Shown here in pieces: positions 7,970 through 20,000 of a stretch of DNA of 20,000 bases. How positions within the stretch are numbered: position 1 is the first letter of the stretch; every line of letters begins with the position of its first letter. The stretch comes from an uncultured virus (IMG/VR IMGVR_UViG_3300042306_000801). Taxonomy: Duplodnaviria > Heunggongvirae > Uroviricota > Caudoviricetes. Under the pieces are notes generated by a model, which was not told where the DNA came from, did not search any database, and worked only from the letters and a program-made list of their open reading frames with translations. A program made the translations under genes and the position numbers. The stretch lies in IMG/VR virus record IMGVR_UViG_3300042306_000801, one strand, 5' to 3'.

Positions 7970-8533
7970 ATGTTACCATTAAAAGAAGCCATAGCTGAAA
8001 AGCACTCTTTGGCAGAAAAGATGACATTTAATCAAAGAATGTTTAAAGGAGAATTATCAAACGAAGAATACATTTTGTATTTGTGTCAGCAATTGGCAAT
8101 ATTTGATGCAATTGAAGTACATGAATTACCACACCCAGCTTTAGATAGAGCTGGTAAGGTATTTGAGGACATTAAAGAATTGATGGGAGAAACTCAAATT
8201 CAAATTACACCATTGGTAGCAACGAATGAATATCGTAAATACCTTCGTACATTGAGTAAAGAAGAAATATTTCCACACGTTTACCTAAACTACTTAGCAA
8301 TTATGTTTGGTGGGCAGATGATGAAAAAGAATGTACCTGGAAGTGGTAAGATGTATGAGTTTGAGGGTGATGTTAGAGAAATTGCCGGAACGATTAGAGC
8401 AATTCAAAAAGATGAATGGGCAGATGAAGCAAACAAAGCATTGGATTACAACATAACTATATTAGATGAATTACAAAGAGTATCTGAATCAGCTAGCGTG
8501 GACGTTGAAGGAGATGGTGGAGAAGGCGCCTAA
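7970..8533 (+). CDS. heme oxygenase (biliverdin-producing, Ho1/HemO-like)
   Basis: LKEAIAEKHSLAE with proximal His, HVYLNYLAIMFGGQMMKK distal helix, EANKALDYN. Confidence 0.88.
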   Translation: MLPLKEAIAEKHSLAEKMTFNQRMFKGELSNEEYILYLCQQLAIFDAIEVHELPHPALDRAGKVFEDIKELMGETQIQITPLVATNEYRKYLRTLSKEEIFPHVYLNYLAIMFGGQMMKKNVPGSGKMYEFEGDVREIAGTIRAIQKDEWADEANKALDYNITILDELQRVSESASVDVEGDGGEGA

Positions 8534-9095
8534 TTGCCAACCATTAGAAACCGAAGATTATGGATGGGATAATTTTAGATATGAATCAAAGTTATTTCGT
8601 ATGGCTCACGTGGAAAGATATGGTGATGGTAAAATAGAAGTACTACACTTTACAACATTCCCACATAAAAATTCACCAGAGCCTATTTTTGGATTTGATG
8701 TTATATCAACTGAAAAAATGGTAACGGGTGCGTATATGGATTTGAGTCCGGTTCTTAAAACATATCCTTTTGATGATGGTATGGATTTTAAAGAAAGGAA
8801 AAAAATACCTGAATGGGCTACCGTATTCTCTGACCGTTTTATTATGTTAAAACCTGAATCCGATGAGGAATTGGTTCGTTTTTGTAATTGGGTAGTGGAC
8901 AAATACGATTGGTATCTCAATTCATTACTTTGGCTAGAGAATAAAACTGATAATATTGAAGGTGTAATAGAGAAACAAAATATTTATTGTCAAATACAGG
9001 CTACTAATCCAAGAACGTTTTCGGCATTGAAAGCTCTAATTGGTGAGGAAAAAGCAAAGTATTTTATGGAAAACATATTATTCCCAAAGATATGA
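8466..9095 (+). CDS. ferredoxin-dependent bilin reductase (PcyA/PcyX family)
   Basis: FRMAHVE, VLHFTTFP, PIFGFDVI, DLSP, IPEWATVFS and QNIYCQIQATNPRT motifs; adjacent to heme oxygenase. Confidence 0.9.
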   Translation: MNYKEYLNQLAWTLKEMVEKAPNCQPLETEDYGWDNFRYESKLFRMAHVERYGDGKIEVLHFTTFPHKNSPEPIFGFDVISTEKMVTGAYMDLSPVLKTYPFDDGMDFKERKKIPEWATVFSDRFIMLKPESDEELVRFCNWVVDKYDWYLNSLLWLENKTDNIEGVIEKQNIYCQIQATNPRTFSALKALIGEEKAKYFMENILFPKI

Positions 9096-9503: not shown

Positions 9504-9944
9504 ATGTTCGTACCAAACCATCTTCATCTTTTGGTAAAGGGTTATGTAAAGACTCCACCAAAAACAGACAAAGTGTTAAACATCTGGTTTACACAATTAG
9601 TACAAAATGTGGGAATGAAAGTAGTAGCCGGTCCCACTTCGGTTTATGTTAATGAACCGGGTAACGAAGGGATAACCGGAACTGTTACATTAGCTACATC
9701 ACACGCATCAATTCACGTTTGGGATAATGAAAACCCAGCGATGTTTCAGTTTGATTTATATAGTTGTTCAAATTTTAAACCAAAAGATGTTTTAAATCAT
9801 TTAGATGATTGGTTTGGATTAACTGAAGCTCATTGGCAATTTATTGACAGAAACGGTAATGATTTCAAAGTGATTGATTCTGGACACTTTAAGAAAAGTA
9901 AGATAAAACAAATAATAGATATATTTAAAAGAAAGCAGGTTTAA
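9504..9944 (+). CDS. speD: S-adenosylmethionine decarboxylase proenzyme
   Basis: HLLV, GITGTVTLATSHASIHVW (pyruvoyl Ser site) and FDLYSC motifs. Confidence 0.85.
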   Translation: MFVPNHLHLLVKGYVKTPPKTDKVLNIWFTQLVQNVGMKVVAGPTSVYVNEPGNEGITGTVTLATSHASIHVWDNENPAMFQFDLYSCSNFKPKDVLNHLDDWFGLTEAHWQFIDRNGNDFKVIDSGHFKKSKIKQIIDIFKRKQV

Positions 9945-10894: not shown

Positions 10895-11128
10895 ATGGAA
10901 ATAAATGAGAAAATAGTAAAGCTAAAGATTAGGGAAAAAGAATTGCAAGAACAACTTGCATATTGGGAAGCCTATCCACCTGTAAATAATATGGGAAAAT
11001 GGGCTAGACAAACCAAACTTGATTCTTTAAAAGAAAAGCTAACAAAGGTTCAGGAAAAGATTCATTTCCACGATTCTATATATTTATCTAATGAAATATA
11101 TAAGGAATGGAAAAAGGATGTAAAATAG
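10895..11128 (+). CDS. hypothetical coiled-coil protein
   Basis: ATG 7 nt after the -7 element. Confidence 0.65.
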   Translation: MEINEKIVKLKIREKELQEQLAYWEAYPPVNNMGKWARQTKLDSLKEKLTKVQEKIHFHDSIYLSNEIYKEWKKDVK

Positions 11129-11832
11129 CACAACTAACTGAAGCCTCACTGGGTAGGGTTCTCCAACACGTTCAAGGTAAAAAGAAGGTAAAAAGTTGGG
11201 GAGTTATAACTGCTTATAGATATGCAAATACTCCTGCTGAAAATAAAGCGGCTAACAAAATATTAGCGGATAAAATAAGAGCTAAAGGATTAGGATTTTT
11301 TGAGATGGAAGGTCATTGGCAAGAGTGTCAAGATAATAGAGTAAACTATTTTGATTGTCCAAAAGATAAATTAGTTGATTCAACCGAAATTTCCTTATTC
11401 GTTCCAAACATTTCAATTAAAGATATTCACCAATTAGGAAATGAATTCACACAGGATTCAGTTTTGTATGGTGGCGAAGATACCAAAGGTAAAGGTGTTT
11501 TGGTTTATAAAAATGGTAGAGTAGAAAGTGTTGGGGATATGCATCCTGGTACAATGCAGCAAGCATATTCAAAAATGAGAAATACCAAACAAGTTTTCGC
11601 ATTTCAAAGAAAAAAAGGTACACAAAGAAATTTACAAAATCTACCAGGATCATCTGCGGAAAGAGATGATAAATTAATCAAAATGTTGCCAAAGGATATT
11701 CTTAATAAAACTGTAAGAAATCCAGAAACCGGCAGAGATATAAAAGTACAATCTGCGCTTAGATATCAAGATGATGCTCCTGTTAAAAAGAGTGCAATGT
11801 CATTAGTACAGATTATGCAAAAATCTAAGTAA
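11107..11832 (+). CDS. hypothetical phage protein
   Basis: 241 aa; WGVITAYR...ENKAAN domain and C-terminal VRNPETGRDIKV motif. Confidence 0.75.
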   Translation: MEKGCKIAQLTEASLGRVLQHVQGKKKVKSWGVITAYRYANTPAENKAANKILADKIRAKGLGFFEMEGHWQECQDNRVNYFDCPKDKLVDSTEISLFVPNISIKDIHQLGNEFTQDSVLYGGEDTKGKGVLVYKNGRVESVGDMHPGTMQQAYSKMRNTKQVFAFQRKKGTQRNLQNLPGSSAERDDKLIKMLPKDILNKTVRNPETGRDIKVQSALRYQDDAPVKKSAMSLVQIMQKSK

Positions 11833-13420: not shown

Positions 13421-14256
13421 AAATGGCCGCCTATGGTCATTAAATAAACTACGAAAGTAGGATAAAGTGAAATGTTTGGTTAAGCATTTTGCGGTTCATA
13501 TCCCTGTAAGGTTATGAGCTTGAGTAGGCAAGTGAGATATCATTTGGGCTTTGTATGTGAGGGTAACACTGTAGCAGAAGAGTTTGGGTGACTGAGCAAT
13601 TGTAGATTGTTCAGTTGAGTTCGGAAGAACGATAAGAATAACTCATAGGATTATTGTAAGAAATAGAAAGCTAATCCCTTTTTATTATTGCGTGATTCAA
13701 TACCAAAGTGGTCTTGACAATCAAGCTATCCGAAAGGACGTAAGATAAGACTGTGTACGGGTGGTGCCGTTACTATCCTTTAATATGGGACACCAATCCC
13801 TATTAATGAAGATGACTTGAAGTATGGCGTTGAGATAACGCATCGGGTAGTATAGTATTCTGTTCTTCAAAAGGGGACAGAGCTAGTGGTGAACCGCTAC
13901 CTGAATCCATCTACGAACCAAAACTTTTATCAAATGCGGATTTGATTATTCAATTATAAATAAAAGCAAAAGTGTTCATCAGTTGTGACCGAAAGGTGCA
14001 TACATAGTTGGGAGTTGTTCCCAGCCACAAACGCCCGCAAGGCGAATGTGATATCTACGAAAAGCTTATAGACCCGCAAGGTTTAATCAGTTCGGCAGGA
14101 TTGAATAAGGGGAGTAATAGGTGAGTAAGTTACAACTTTAAGAGTGGTTAATCTATAATAACCTGCATTGACTGGTACATCTCAAAAGGGTGTGGAAACG
14201 AAAGGAAACAAAATAATCTTTCTAAAGCTAGTTATCCCAACGTATATTCTCAGCGT
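13421..14256 (+). ncRNA. giant structured ncRNA, GOLLD-like
   Basis: ~835 nt with no ORF in the track, GC-richer than the flanks, many helices capped by GAAA/GCAA/GTAA loops; size and tRNA-flanked phage context fit GOLLD; ends approximate. Confidence 0.75.
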
Positions 14257-14386: not shown

Positions 14387-14457
14387 AATTTAAGCCTGAT
14401 AAAACTAACAAAGATTCGGAAAATAAAATTATTATATACTTATATAAACAAACAGTG

Positions 14458-14619
14458 ATGAAAACTTTAACACTACATACAAATTGTTCGCAACCTACAT
14501 TGAGAAATGAGTGGGCAGGCATTCGTATGTTTAGTACGTTAAGTAATCCGGCAAACTTACAATTAGGCAAGGTGGATTATATTAGTACGAAGCAGTTAGA
14601 GGACACTGATGTTGGGTAA
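14458..14619 (+). CDS. putative leader peptide of the tRNA array (53 aa, not in ORF track)
   Basis: MKTLTLHTNCSQPTLRNEWAGIRMFSTLSNPANLQLGKVDYISTKQLEDTDVG; contains all 20 amino acids; followed by a terminator. Confidence 0.65.
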   Translation: MKTLTLHTNCSQPTLRNEWAGIRMFSTLSNPANLQLGKVDYISTKQLEDTDVG

Positions 14620-14656
14620 TTACATAACTTAACTTAAATAGAAAGACCTCTAACTG
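14593..14656 (+). promoter_or_regulatory. putative antiterminator helix
   Basis: CAGTTAGAGG (14593-14602, inside the leader ORF) is the exact reverse complement of CCTCTAACTG (14647-14656, terminator 5' arm). Confidence 0.65.
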
Positions 14657-14680
14657 AATAAAATCGGTTAGAGGTTTTTT
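14644..14680 (+). terminator. intrinsic terminator immediately upstream of the tRNA array
   Basis: AGACCTCTAACTGA-ATAAAA-TCGGTTAGAGGTTT followed by more Ts. Confidence 0.85.
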
Positions 14681-14688
14681 CGTTTTAA

Positions 14689-14760
14689 GCTCCTTTGGCG
14701 CAGCGGTAGCGCAGCAGACTGTTAATCTGTTGGTCCTTGGTTCGAATCCAAGAGGGAGCG
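14689..14760 (+). tRNA. tRNA-Asn (GTT)
   Basis: Cloverleaf; GCAGA-CTGTTAA-TCTGT. Confidence 0.95.
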
Positions 14761-14767
14761 CAAGATT

Positions 14768-15990: not shown

Positions 15991-16049
15991 GATAAAGGAG
16001 TATCGCCTAACGTAAGAGTTGGGAAGGTGGTTCGATTCCACATTTTATT
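15991..16049 (+). ncRNA. D-armless tRNA-like element or tRNA pseudogene
   Basis: ATAAAG/TTTTAT acceptor-like stem, CCTAAC-GTAAGA-GTTGGG hairpin, GTGG-TTCGATT-CCAC T arm. Confidence 0.5.
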
Positions 16050-16117
16050 GTGGGGAGATTAGGTAATCCGTTTGGTCTCATAAGCCAGATATTCAGGTTC
16101 GATTCCTGGCCCCGCAA
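16049..16117 (+). tRNA. tRNA-Met (CAT), short D arm
   Basis: TGTGGGG/CCCCGCA acceptor; TTGGT-CTCATAA-GCCAG. Confidence 0.85.
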
Positions 16118-16123
16118 CAATAT

Positions 16124-16823: not shown

Positions 16824-16894
16824 GGAGAGTTAGTTAATCGGTATAATGCTGCCTTGTCACGGCAGTGTGACGGGTTCGATTCCCGTACTTTCCG
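16824..16894 (+). tRNA. tRNA-Asp (GTC)
   Basis: CTGCC-TTGTCAC-GGCAG; G73. Confidence 0.94.
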
Positions 16895-16896
16895 CA

Positions 16897-17154: not shown

Positions 17155-17604
17155 ATGAGAAAAGTTATTCTTTTATTCTTAACTGTTATTATGTTTATTC
17201 CGCATAATATGATTAACTCCGAAATGAGTGAGGAAGAAGTTGCGGACATAATGATAGAAAAGAAAAAGATACCTTATGATGTAGTTACGGTTACAACATA
17301 TACGGTATCAAAAGGCGAAACTGATTCAACTCCACTAATTACCGCAAGTGGTTATAAGTTGGATAGTTTAAATCCTAAAAAGCAAAAGGTAATTGCAATT
17401 AGTAGAGACTTAAAACGAAAGTATAAGTTTGGACAAAAGGTAAGAGTGAAGGGTGCTGGAAAATTAGATGGGGTTTATACTGTCAGAGATTTGATGGCAA
17501 AGAGGTGGACAAAAAAGATTGATATATTAATTAATCCAGATGAAAGTGGAACTAAAATCAGAAGGGTTAAAATATATAATATAAAAAAGGATTTGGATAA
17601 TTAA
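17155..17604 (+). CDS. 3D-domain (MltA-like) cell-wall protein with signal peptide
   Basis: VTVTTY...TDSTPLITASG...IAISRDL...FGQKVRV...VRD...IDILI: three conserved Asp. Confidence 0.85.
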   Translation: MRKVILLFLTVIMFIPHNMINSEMSEEEVADIMIEKKKIPYDVVTVTTYTVSKGETDSTPLITASGYKLDSLNPKKQKVIAISRDLKRKYKFGQKVRVKGAGKLDGVYTVRDLMAKRWTKKIDILINPDESGTKIRRVKIYNIKKDLDN

Positions 17605-17623
17605 ATTATTATTCGTATCTTTG
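17592..17623 (+). promoter_or_regulatory. Bacteroidota-type promoter within the tRNA array
   Basis: TTTG + 20 nt + TATCTTTG. Confidence 0.85.
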
Positions 17624-18713: not shown

Positions 18714-18884
18714 TGTTAGATGGTGAAATTGGTTATCTATGTTATAACCTGGCAAACACACCCACTCGTCTCGTGGGCGAGGATAAAGAAATAGAAAAGT
18801 AATATGGGGTTGACCACCAGCTTGCAAGCACTAAATGTTACTTTTTGAATCTCCTCTTGTATGGTTCGAATCCTACTCTAACAG
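18714..18884 (+). ncRNA. oversized tRNA-like RNA (171 nt)
   Basis: TGTTAGA/TCTAACA acceptor, D arm with inserted hairpin, CCCAC-TCGTCTC-GTGGG, ~80-nt variable arm, GGTTCGAATCC T loop. Confidence 0.75.
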
Positions 18885-18897
18885 CATACTTATTGTT

Positions 18898-19446
18898 ATG
18901 AACGTTATATTATTTGTTGCATTAGAAAATGAGTTTCCAAAGGAAAAAGCACCAGCTGGTGTTAAAGTTGTTTATACTGGCGTTGGAAAAGTAAATGCAG
19001 CTATAAGAGCAACCGAAACTCTTAAAGATTTAGACCCTAAAGATGTGACCGTTATAAACTATGGAAGTGCGGGTGGACATGCCAATATGGTTGGTAGTTT
19101 ATTTAAGTGTAAAACATTTGTCCAAAATGATATGGACGCCAGACCATTTGCAGATAAAACAATCACACCATTTGATAATGAAATAGTAATGGGTAATATT
19201 GATTTCAATGGATTGGGATATAATATATGTTATACACAAGACCATTTTCAAACCACACCATCTGTAATATGTGATATGGAAGCATACTCAATTGCAAAGG
19301 TATGTAAGATTTATGGATTTGATTTTACTGCATACAAATATGTAAGTGATAGCGGTAATCCGGATGATTGGGAAGCTAATCACAACAAAGGAATTGAATT
19401 ATTTTTAAAATCATTACAAAAATATGCCCTGATGGTGGAACGGTAG
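18898..19446 (+). CDS. MTA/SAH nucleosidase family (PNP_UDP_1)
   Basis: ALENE, TGVGKVNAA, INYGSAG, CDMEAYSIA, KYVSD; start moved to ATG 18898 because 18835 lies in the tRNA-like RNA. Confidence 0.9.
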   Translation: MNVILFVALENEFPKEKAPAGVKVVYTGVGKVNAAIRATETLKDLDPKDVTVINYGSAGGHANMVGSLFKCKTFVQNDMDARPFADKTITPFDNEIVMGNIDFNGLGYNICYTQDHFQTTPSVICDMEAYSIAKVCKIYGFDFTAYKYVSDSGNPDDWEANHNKGIELFLKSLQKYALMVER

Positions 19447-19522: not shown

Positions 19523-20000
19523 ATGATAGTATTTTTTAAAGATTATAAACGAACTGATAGAACTTATTTATCGGTTCAATCGGTGAGACATCTTTTTCCT
19601 AATATTGATATAAGATGTCTTTTTTTATATGATAATGATATAAGCGAATACATTCAATACATACCAAAGTTTTTAGAATTAGGAGTATCAATTTATTTTG
19701 ATAAGAAGAAATGGAATTTTGGAAATACATCTGCAGCAGGTTCTACATTAAATGGATTTTACTTTACCGAAGGTATAAATAAAATACAGGCTCTAACTAG
19801 AGAATATGATAAAGTTCTAATATTAGATGAAGATTCATTTTTTACAAGCGGTGAAACAATTAGATTTCTTTTAGATAATACATTTGATTTAGCATGTGGA
19901 GATTGGCCCGCACCACCATGGCCTCCAATTGCATATGCAAGTAGACCATCGTATGAAGTTAATGCATGTACACTTGCAATAAATCCTAAAAAATTAAATC
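19523..20000 (+). CDS. putative GT-A glycosyltransferase (partial, runs off the window)
   Basis: Open frame MIVFFKDYKR...SVQSVRHLFP...YDKVLILDEDSFF with a DxD motif after a hydrophobic strand. Confidence 0.65.
   Translation, partial: MIVFFKDYKRTDRTYLSVQSVRHLFPNIDIRCLFLYDNDISEYIQYIPKFLELGVSIYFDKKKWNFGNTSAAGSTLNGFYFTEGINKIQALTREYDKVLILDEDSFFTSGETIRFLLDNTFDLACGDWPAPPWPPIAYASRPSYEVNACTLAINPKKLN

Follow-up and report, generated by a model that had tools for sequence, protein, structure and literature searches.

The window analysed here, a stretch of 20,000 nucleotides from an uncultured virus, carries phage-type genes, a GOLLD RNA and 26 tRNAs called by ARAGORN, none of which is the element described below. 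The nearest record (G001, 274 kb), with which the window has 63% of sampled words in common, holds this element almost unchanged, encodes a tail sheath, a major capsid protein and a terminase, and is a myovirus according to a PHROGs scan of 79 of its 213 open reading frames. No synthetase or amidotransferase was found at E ≤ 1e-25 among those 79 frames, and G001 gave no gatB or aspS match. The tRNA block that includes the element is headed by a promoter-like site of the Bacteroidota type (17592-17623, plus strand), one of five matches in the window, all on the plus strand, against 1.43 expected, a count reached in 5 of 200 shuffles. Together with the distribution of homologues given below, these matches suggest a Bacteroidota host. 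The same array holds an ordinary tRNA-Asp(GUC) (16824-16895, plus strand), so that the element is not needed for reading Asp codons, and a tRNA-Asn(GUU) (14689-14761, plus strand) which, because it has G1-C72, is expected to be a poor substrate of bacterial GatCAB, judging from the accessible part of PMC1635274.

Several other features of the window deserve mention. A low-scoring tRNA-Met(CAU) at 16049-16118 (30.3 bits) has a short D arm and a U1-A72-like start and is unusual beside the two further CAU tRNAs present, and a short Thr/Asn-rich ORF followed by a hairpin and T-run lies just before tRNA-Asn and tRNA-Val (14450-14680). A heme oxygenase gene adjoins one for a ferredoxin-dependent bilin reductase (7970-9095), here in a phage with a probable Bacteroidota host, and IscU/NifU-like and IscA-like Fe-S genes occur together with AdoMet decarboxylase-like and SAM-lyase-like genes (100-1343, 9504-9944 and 11107-11832). 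The GOLLD RNA, which lies in the same array as the element, matches Rfam at 13843-14256 (305.5 bits); since RNA-library contigs also cover about 13430-13843, upstream of this match, it probably has a further 5' domain of some 400 nt.

The element itself is a 171-nt tRNA-like RNA gene at 18714-18884 (plus strand), extending from U1 to the discriminator base G73, with no CCA encoded (the genome reads on C, A). The 5' strand of its 7-bp acceptor stem (18714-18720, beginning U1, G2, U3) pairs with 18877-18883, the 3' strand together with G73 occupying 18877-18884. The D arm (18723-18759) is of the tRNA-Leu type, with a 3-bp stem (18723-18725/18757-18759), GG at 18751-18752 and one extra base, 20a, and its loop bears a phage-specific inserted hairpin (18731-18749) that is a perfect palindrome in many relatives. 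The anticodon arm (18761-18777) presents the loop U32 C33 G34 U35 C36 U37 C38 (18766-18772). The variable domain of 81 nt (18778-18858) is built of a basal stem (18779-18782/18853-18856), a conserved internal loop, a long stem (18794-18805/18835-18846) and a tip, where a sequence-conserved motif (18807-18817), a candidate small GG/CC hairpin plus ACCAC shared by 137 of the 140 phage copies and 27 of the 61 bacterial ones, precedes a spacer-less 10-nt palindrome (18820-18829). The T arm (18859-18876) has a canonical T loop and a bulged U at 18862, a bulge found in 20 of 103 aligned copies. A preliminary description made from this sequence had reported the D-loop hairpin, an anticodon loop UCGUCUC lacking U33 and purine 37, and a long paired variable domain, all of which we confirm; it had also called the acceptor, D and T elements intact, which holds for the acceptor and the D arm but not fully for the T stem with its bulged U. 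An ORF listed at 18835-19446 overlaps the RNA, and the nucleoside-phosphorylase-like gene it represents more likely starts at 18898.

The fold energy of the element by itself is not beyond chance (z -1.27, with 24 of 200 shuffles equally good), so this score is uninformative. The proof of structure is comparative. Scans with sequence patterns picked up 15, 18, 91 and at least 120 loci in viral records, in overlapping sets, and 23 loci in genomes, 22 titled Bacteroidota and one on a 518-base contig in an alphaproteobacterial bin. Parsing yielded 168 distinct sequences, a set that model searches raised to a family of 201 distinct tRNA-like RNAs of 76-212 nt, 140 from phages and 61 from Bacteroidota. 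In an alignment of 103 homologues 94.4% of cells pair and two-sided changes occur in 32 of 39 pairs; none of 500 shuffles reached any of five pairing measures, and slid controls paired at 41-52%, relative to which the structure is favoured by having been drawn from the window copy. The long variable stem likewise shows two-sided changes in a 17-sequence subset, and covariation supports an acceptor/T branch of the 7/5 type. The cloverleaf with U8-A14, 15-48, G18G19 and the T loop is present. Because the tertiary pairs U8-A14 and A15-U48 are invariant (103/103) and 26:44 covaries (A-C 62, G-U 24), the tRNA elbow is under selection. The element is thus real and conserved, and the earlier argument from good pairing against simple decay is borne out by homologues with compensatory changes.

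The preliminary description had proposed building a covariance model from the homologues and running ARAGORN. The latter makes no call on the element and at default settings calls only one of the 201 family members. Model R1 scores the window element at 138.9 bits and the true tRNAs of the window at 20 or less, the element being in its training set. Members mostly score 80-138 bits, and the next-best matches are host tRNA-Leu at 50-56 bits; in the phylum sample described below, matches of 82-86 nt at 49-56 bits are ordinary tRNAs, all seven inspected being tRNA-Leu. No Rfam family, the tRNA model RF00005, YrlA, tmRNA, tRNA-Sec and GOLLD included, matched the element or the 11 relatives' loci at E ≤ 1; a weak sX4 match on the upstream tRNA-Ser overlaps the first 15 bases of the element. 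A blastn comparison with annotated phages returned short chance or T-arm matches, none of 75 covering most of the query. The family is apparently undescribed and resides in Bacteroidota and their viruses. We found no description of it in a literature consisting mainly of freely readable papers, and an earlier description may exist.

The family also includes some unusual forms. A 76-nt family-like RNA (L397:1339-1414) has a short variable loop, an AUC anticodon, U37, U1-A72 and G73, and a 93-nt phage form (L016:984-1076) combines an ordinary class II arm and a GUC/U37 loop with A1-U72. Bacterial copies are solitary or in tandem, with a terminator present at the one locus scanned; four tandem copies lie at L055:2726-3813 and three at L050:2693-3251, in Saprospiraceae and Sporocytophaga genomes, and some of their variable tips differ. 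A region of a Saprospiraceae genome (L426:1-1601) holds a nine-gene tRNA array with a tRNA-Ile(UAU).

Contigs from four RNA libraries, which may include DNA, lie on the element. One matches 18769-18856 with 0 differences and another spans 18751-18886 with 8, and 19532-20000 is without cover in any run. All four runs are assembled contigs, which drop rare forms and carry no level, strand or end information; among the joints listed (9 further joints lie outside this listing) none skips across the variable arm, and the unspliced arm is covered. The preliminary description had offered, as one possibility, a tRNA with an unusual intervening sequence, either the variable domain or the D insert being removed from a precursor. 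The insert-like variation in size between copies would suit such an intron. The variable region, however, ranges from 24 to about 140 nt in graded lengths on a conserved basal stem, the RNA-library contigs run through it, no Rfam intron matches, and removal would leave positions 33 and 37 unrepaired, so that this explanation is extremely improbable. One further contig can be read as a circle of 118 nt that starts at U35 and closes after C74 and an additional letter, which fits neither flank; it would suit a cut in the anticodon loop followed by partial CCA addition, a weak hint from a single contig of one run that may be a library product.

Decoding tRNAs carry U33 and a purine at position 37. 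Among 88 phage copies found with the loop left free, G34, U35 and C36 are present in all 88, U37 in 86 and C38 in 82, and the base at position 33 is C, U or A in 46, 40 and two copies, respectively; a purine at 37 occurs in two. G33 is found in five bacterial copies, and the anticodon departs in some bacterial copies (UUC in two and AUC in one of 60 parsed). Since U33 and purine 37 are not kept, the family probably does not decode. A class II tRNA that reads GAY, either as Asp or as a mistranslator inserting Asn or Ser by way of the long arm and G73, would agree with the 7-nt loop and its invariant GUC, with the Leu-like elbow and with the existence of allo-tRNAs having GUC (PMC5389517, accessible part); we regard it as very unlikely, given the mixed position 33, the near absence of purine 37, the G33 of bacterial copies, variable domains of up to about 140 nt and an ordinary tRNA-Asp in the same array.

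With anticodon-anchored patterns and the acceptor left free, U1-A72 is found in 97 of 97 copies, G73 in 96 and G2-C71 in 94; three short 93-nt phage loci with A1-U72 (L016, L019 and L023) lie outside this set. Conservation of U1-A72, G73 and the tertiary core is equally strict in phage and host copies. The accessible text of PMC9976931 gives G73, G34, U35, C36 and C38 as the Asp identity determinants, and states that bacterial tRNA-Asp has G1-C72, which helps E. coli AspRS. All six members of the AspRS identity set G73, G34, U35, C36, C38 and G2-C71 are present in the window copy, and the U33, purine 37 and G1-C72 of a decoding tRNA-Asp are not features of the family. For bacterial GatCAB, U1-A72 is reported as the main determinant, the anticodon being ignored (PMC1635274, PMC2811023); G1-C72 costs 100-fold and U20A 7- to 10-fold with the N. 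meningitidis enzyme (PMC1635274), and an engineered tRNA-Asp with U1-A72 and no U20A is amidated almost as tRNA-Asn (PMC1635274, PMC2811023), as far as the available portions of these papers go. The family has the U1-A72 pair, but its Leu-type D loop carries the extra base 20a. Signals for AspRS and for GatCAB are thus combined in an RNA whose body violates the rules of decoding.

The D-loop insert is an extra confined to phages (present in 77 of 140 phage copies and in none of 60 bacterial ones), and 45 of 69 distinct inserts contain a palindrome of at least 6 nt (shuffle mean 13.7). Tip palindromes of at least 6 nt are likewise found in 63 of 74 distinct phage tips versus 7 of 24 bacterial ones; over all tips the count is 67 of 80, against a shuffle mean of 15.5 and maximum of 26, letter shuffles not controlling for ordinary hairpins. 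In phage copies the palindrome centres switch among ten self-complementary 4-mers, and several palindromes are unable to fold on themselves. The 10-nt palindrome of the window copy, a candidate homodimer site, is predicted at -0.1 kcal/mol as a hairpin and -16.3 kcal/mol as a homoduplex. From their sequences, the phage palindromes suggest self-dimerisation, and in OLE and GOLLD the same switching-palindrome pattern marks cross-chain bridges, according to the accessible part of bioRxiv 10.1101/2024.12.08.627333. The two pairs of the tip-motif hairpin never vary in the alignment, making it a pairing candidate only; a pseudoknot between this motif and the D arm was rejected because ACCAC is fixed while the D stem varies.

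These phage-enriched palindromes and inserts would also fit a phage copy whose main use is to counter host anticodon nucleases as a decoy or scaffold, its palindromes serving to multimerise it and a metabolic role being left to the host copies. Such a function could account for the circle beginning at U35, as a weak hint of anticodon-loop cutting, and for a nearest phage record with no gatB or aspS match. Against it, phage copies keep their acceptor bases and tertiary core as strictly as host copies do, the array already has a normal tRNA-Asp, and the circle may be a library product; we consider it unlikely as the main function, while noting that it can coexist with a carrier function.

Of 39 bacterial loci inspected, 26 have as their divergent neighbour an Lrp/AsnC-like regulator gene, whose best NCBIfam match is AsnC at 152-174 bits, under the cut-off of 227. 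In E. coli, asnC faces asnA. The RNA was found in 16 of 151 genomes of a phylum sample, in which 126 have gatB, and in 28 of 151 genomes of a class sample (Bacteroidia), all within the 112 with gatB. The latter association (28/28 versus a background of 112/151) has P = 8e-5, uncorrected for kinship, which may inflate the co-occurrence, and 5e-4 for the 22 new genomes alone; one of the genomes counted, G229, is unpublished, and none of our claims depends on it. Over both samples and three further loci, gatB is present in 41 of 41 RNA carriers, and no RNA was found in the 25 and 39 gatB-less genomes of the two overlapping samples. Conversely, no copy was found in 84 of 112 (class) and 110 of 126 (phylum) gatB-positive genomes, and searching 40 genomes more deeply yielded no copy other than that of G048; the genomes are MAGs of unstated completeness, in which a miss is not an absence. 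Five gatB-positive non-carriers were examined for four genes: GlnRS is missing from all five, a lack that accounts for their gatB, canonical asnB and the AsnC orthologue are missing too, and AsnRS is present in four.

The canonical asnB model scored over cut-off in 0 of 24 carriers versus 9 of 11 gatB-less non-carriers; six of the 24 have partial AsnB-like matches below cut-off (180-238 bits), and asnA is intact in one and broken in one. The Bacteroidia-type subset was delimited post hoc, on the basis of AsnRS scores. GlnRS is present in 17 of 24 carriers and AsnRS in 16 of 19, so that many carriers do not need GatCAB for translation. All five carriers tested have gatA, and the GatB turn that reads pair 1-72 is retained, NMEEG aligning with KMEEG of S. 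aureus in an alignment that left out G005, G012 and G140. In G004, G072, G076 and G148 only G1-C72 tRNA-Asn was seen among the copies found, with gatA and gatB over cut-off; a full U1-A72 tRNA-Asn is still present in 12 of 18 carriers. On an AspRS tree of 29 genomes, which left out G040, the distribution of the RNA needs five changes, two of them forced by strong branches, and the non-carriers that lack gatB and bear asnA/asnB occupy three distinct branches. A His at the RDHGG position, presumably a marker of AspRS type, occurs in only two of the 29, both non-carriers, and other non-carriers are also without it. The gatB-less G022 has an AsnC orthologue with no asn gene facing it. We also note a 1106-aa GatB-AspRS fusion after a gatA gene (L396:3304-6624, genome G186) and gatB in frames of 1110-1120 aa in three more genomes, none of these four having the RNA.

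Starting from the fold, identity bases, gene context and co-occurrence observed in sequences and genomes, we infer with a probability of roughly 0.6 that this tRNA-like RNA does not decode and serves as a dedicated carrier for the amidation of Asp to Asn, and that the phage took it from its Bacteroidota host. RNase P and the CCA-adding enzyme would mature the RNA like a tRNA; host AspRS would charge it with Asp through GUC, C38, G73 and G2-C71, and host GatCAB would read U1-A72 and amidate the Asp to Asn. C33 or G33, U37, the bulky variable domain and the T-stem bulges would keep the RNA off the ribosome, so that Asn would not be put at Asp codons, and Asn would be released by some further step and then used by AsnRS. 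The AsnC-like regulator facing the gene may adjust the RNA to the supply of Asn. During infection the phage copy, relying on host enzymes, would increase or restore that supply, and copies are probably linked through their palindromes into dimers or larger complexes. The preliminary description had proposed a non-decoding mimic serving as decoy, ribosome modulator or scaffold. Its non-decoding part is the most likely reading of the mixed position 33 and U37, but we favour a metabolic carrier over a mere decoy or scaffold because of the invariant GUC, the acceptor with its U1-A72 and G73, the homologues on chromosomes that face asnC-like genes, the gatB link and the lack of asparagine synthetase, all of which had escaped that description.

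Some of the evidence weighs against amidation on this RNA. The 20a base is an antideterminant, at 7- to 10-fold, for the GatCABs tested in the accessible part of PMC1635274, and the D-loop hairpin of the window copy lies near where the GatB tail binds. In many gatB-positive genomes no copy was found, a full U1-A72 tRNA-Asn is retained by 12 of 18 carriers, and G1-C72, which the RNA lacks, helps E. coli AspRS. PMC4206432, in its accessible part, explains Bacteroidetes with U1-A72 tRNA-Asn by a relaxed AspRS acting on tRNA-Asn. The full Asp identity set, the AsnC-like neighbour and the disfavoured 20a base would all suit a regulator or decoy, controlled by AsnC, that AspRS binds or charges and that modulates Asp/Asn flux with no amidation. 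We think this rather unlikely, as it leaves unexplained the U1-A72 of 97/97 copies, a departure from the G1-C72 of bacterial tRNA-Asp, as well as gatB in every carrier and the mutual exclusion with asnB. Quite unlikely, too, is an aminoacyl donor for non-ribosomal chemistry that passes Asp or Asn to lipid, wall or protein: the non-decoding loop and the T-stem bulges would agree with it, and the staphylococcal non-proteinogenic tRNA-Gly (PMC8007984, accessible part) offers a precedent, but the scanned neighbours of the RNA and of gatB include no recurrent transferase gene, and the mutual exclusion with asnB indicates a role in Asn supply. Nor is there a release enzyme among the genes next to gatB, which are a TlpA-like redoxin, AlaRS or a PDZ protease.

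Extended to its full scope, the carrier proposal describes a reusable RNA coenzyme for free Asn that replaces asparagine synthetase in many Bacteroidota, is controlled by AsnC and has been captured by jumbo phages as a self-dimerising form, a picture to which we give slightly better than even odds. A family present in about one in five sampled Bacteroidia genomes (28/151) and in many phages has been missed by Rfam and ARAGORN. If the carrier role is correct, it would explain why many Bacteroidota have GatCAB alongside AsnRS and GlnRS yet no asparagine synthetase, including those whose tRNA-Asn no longer has U1-A72. Bacteria would then have a third route to asparagine, in which an amino acid is made on an RNA that is dedicated to this task and does not decode. 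Predictions of Asn auxotrophy from metabolism would have to be revised, and phages would be credited with an auxiliary metabolic RNA.

Among known systems, the proposed pathway resembles tRNA-dependent Asn synthesis by non-discriminating AspRS, tRNA-Asn and GatCAB (PMC1635274, PMC2811023, PMC4206432) in its enzymes, chemistry, U1-A72 handle and missing asnA/asnB, and differs from it, as described in the accessible parts of these papers, in that the carrier would be a separate non-decoding RNA with an Asp anticodon, a class II body and a 20a base. With such a carrier AspRS need not be relaxed, and Asn must be released rather than delivered to the ribosome. The family has G34, U35, C36, C38, G73 and G2-C71 in common with bacterial tRNA-Asp(GUC), from which it is set apart by U1-A72, U37, the lack of a fixed U33, a Leu-type D arm and a variable region of 24 to about 140 nt. 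The 3-bp D stem, A15-U48 and D-loop layout are those of bacterial class II tRNA-Leu, unlike the G73, GUC loop and giant arm; G73 is a LeuRS antideterminant in E. coli (PMC9976931, accessible part).

Like allo-tRNAs (PMC5389517), these are overlooked tRNA-like RNAs with a long variable arm, G73 and, for allo-tRNAs, non-cognate anticodons that include GUC. In allo-tRNAs, as portrayed in the available text, the acceptor branch is 8/4 or 9/3 and the D arm is Sec-like, and they occur in other phyla, whereas the present family has a covariation-supported 7/5 branch and a Leu-like D arm, and we rejected allo-tRNA identity on the branch type. The non-proteinogenic tRNA-Gly of Staphylococcus aureus (PMC8007984, accessible part) is similarly a charged tRNA kept off EF-Tu and the ribosome for metabolic use, as proposed here; amino acid, fold and use differ, and in the present case the amino acid would change on the RNA. 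The switching of self-complementary loop words that remain palindromic throughout recalls the GOLLD, ROOL and OLE multimers (bioRxiv 10.1101/2024.12.08.627333, accessible part), in which alone bridging has been shown; there is no sequence or Rfam similarity to them, the palindromes here being grafted on a tRNA body. In function, as we infer it, the family most likely works like tRNA-Asn in the indirect pathway but is neither tRNA-Asn, tRNA-Asp, allo-tRNA nor any Rfam family.
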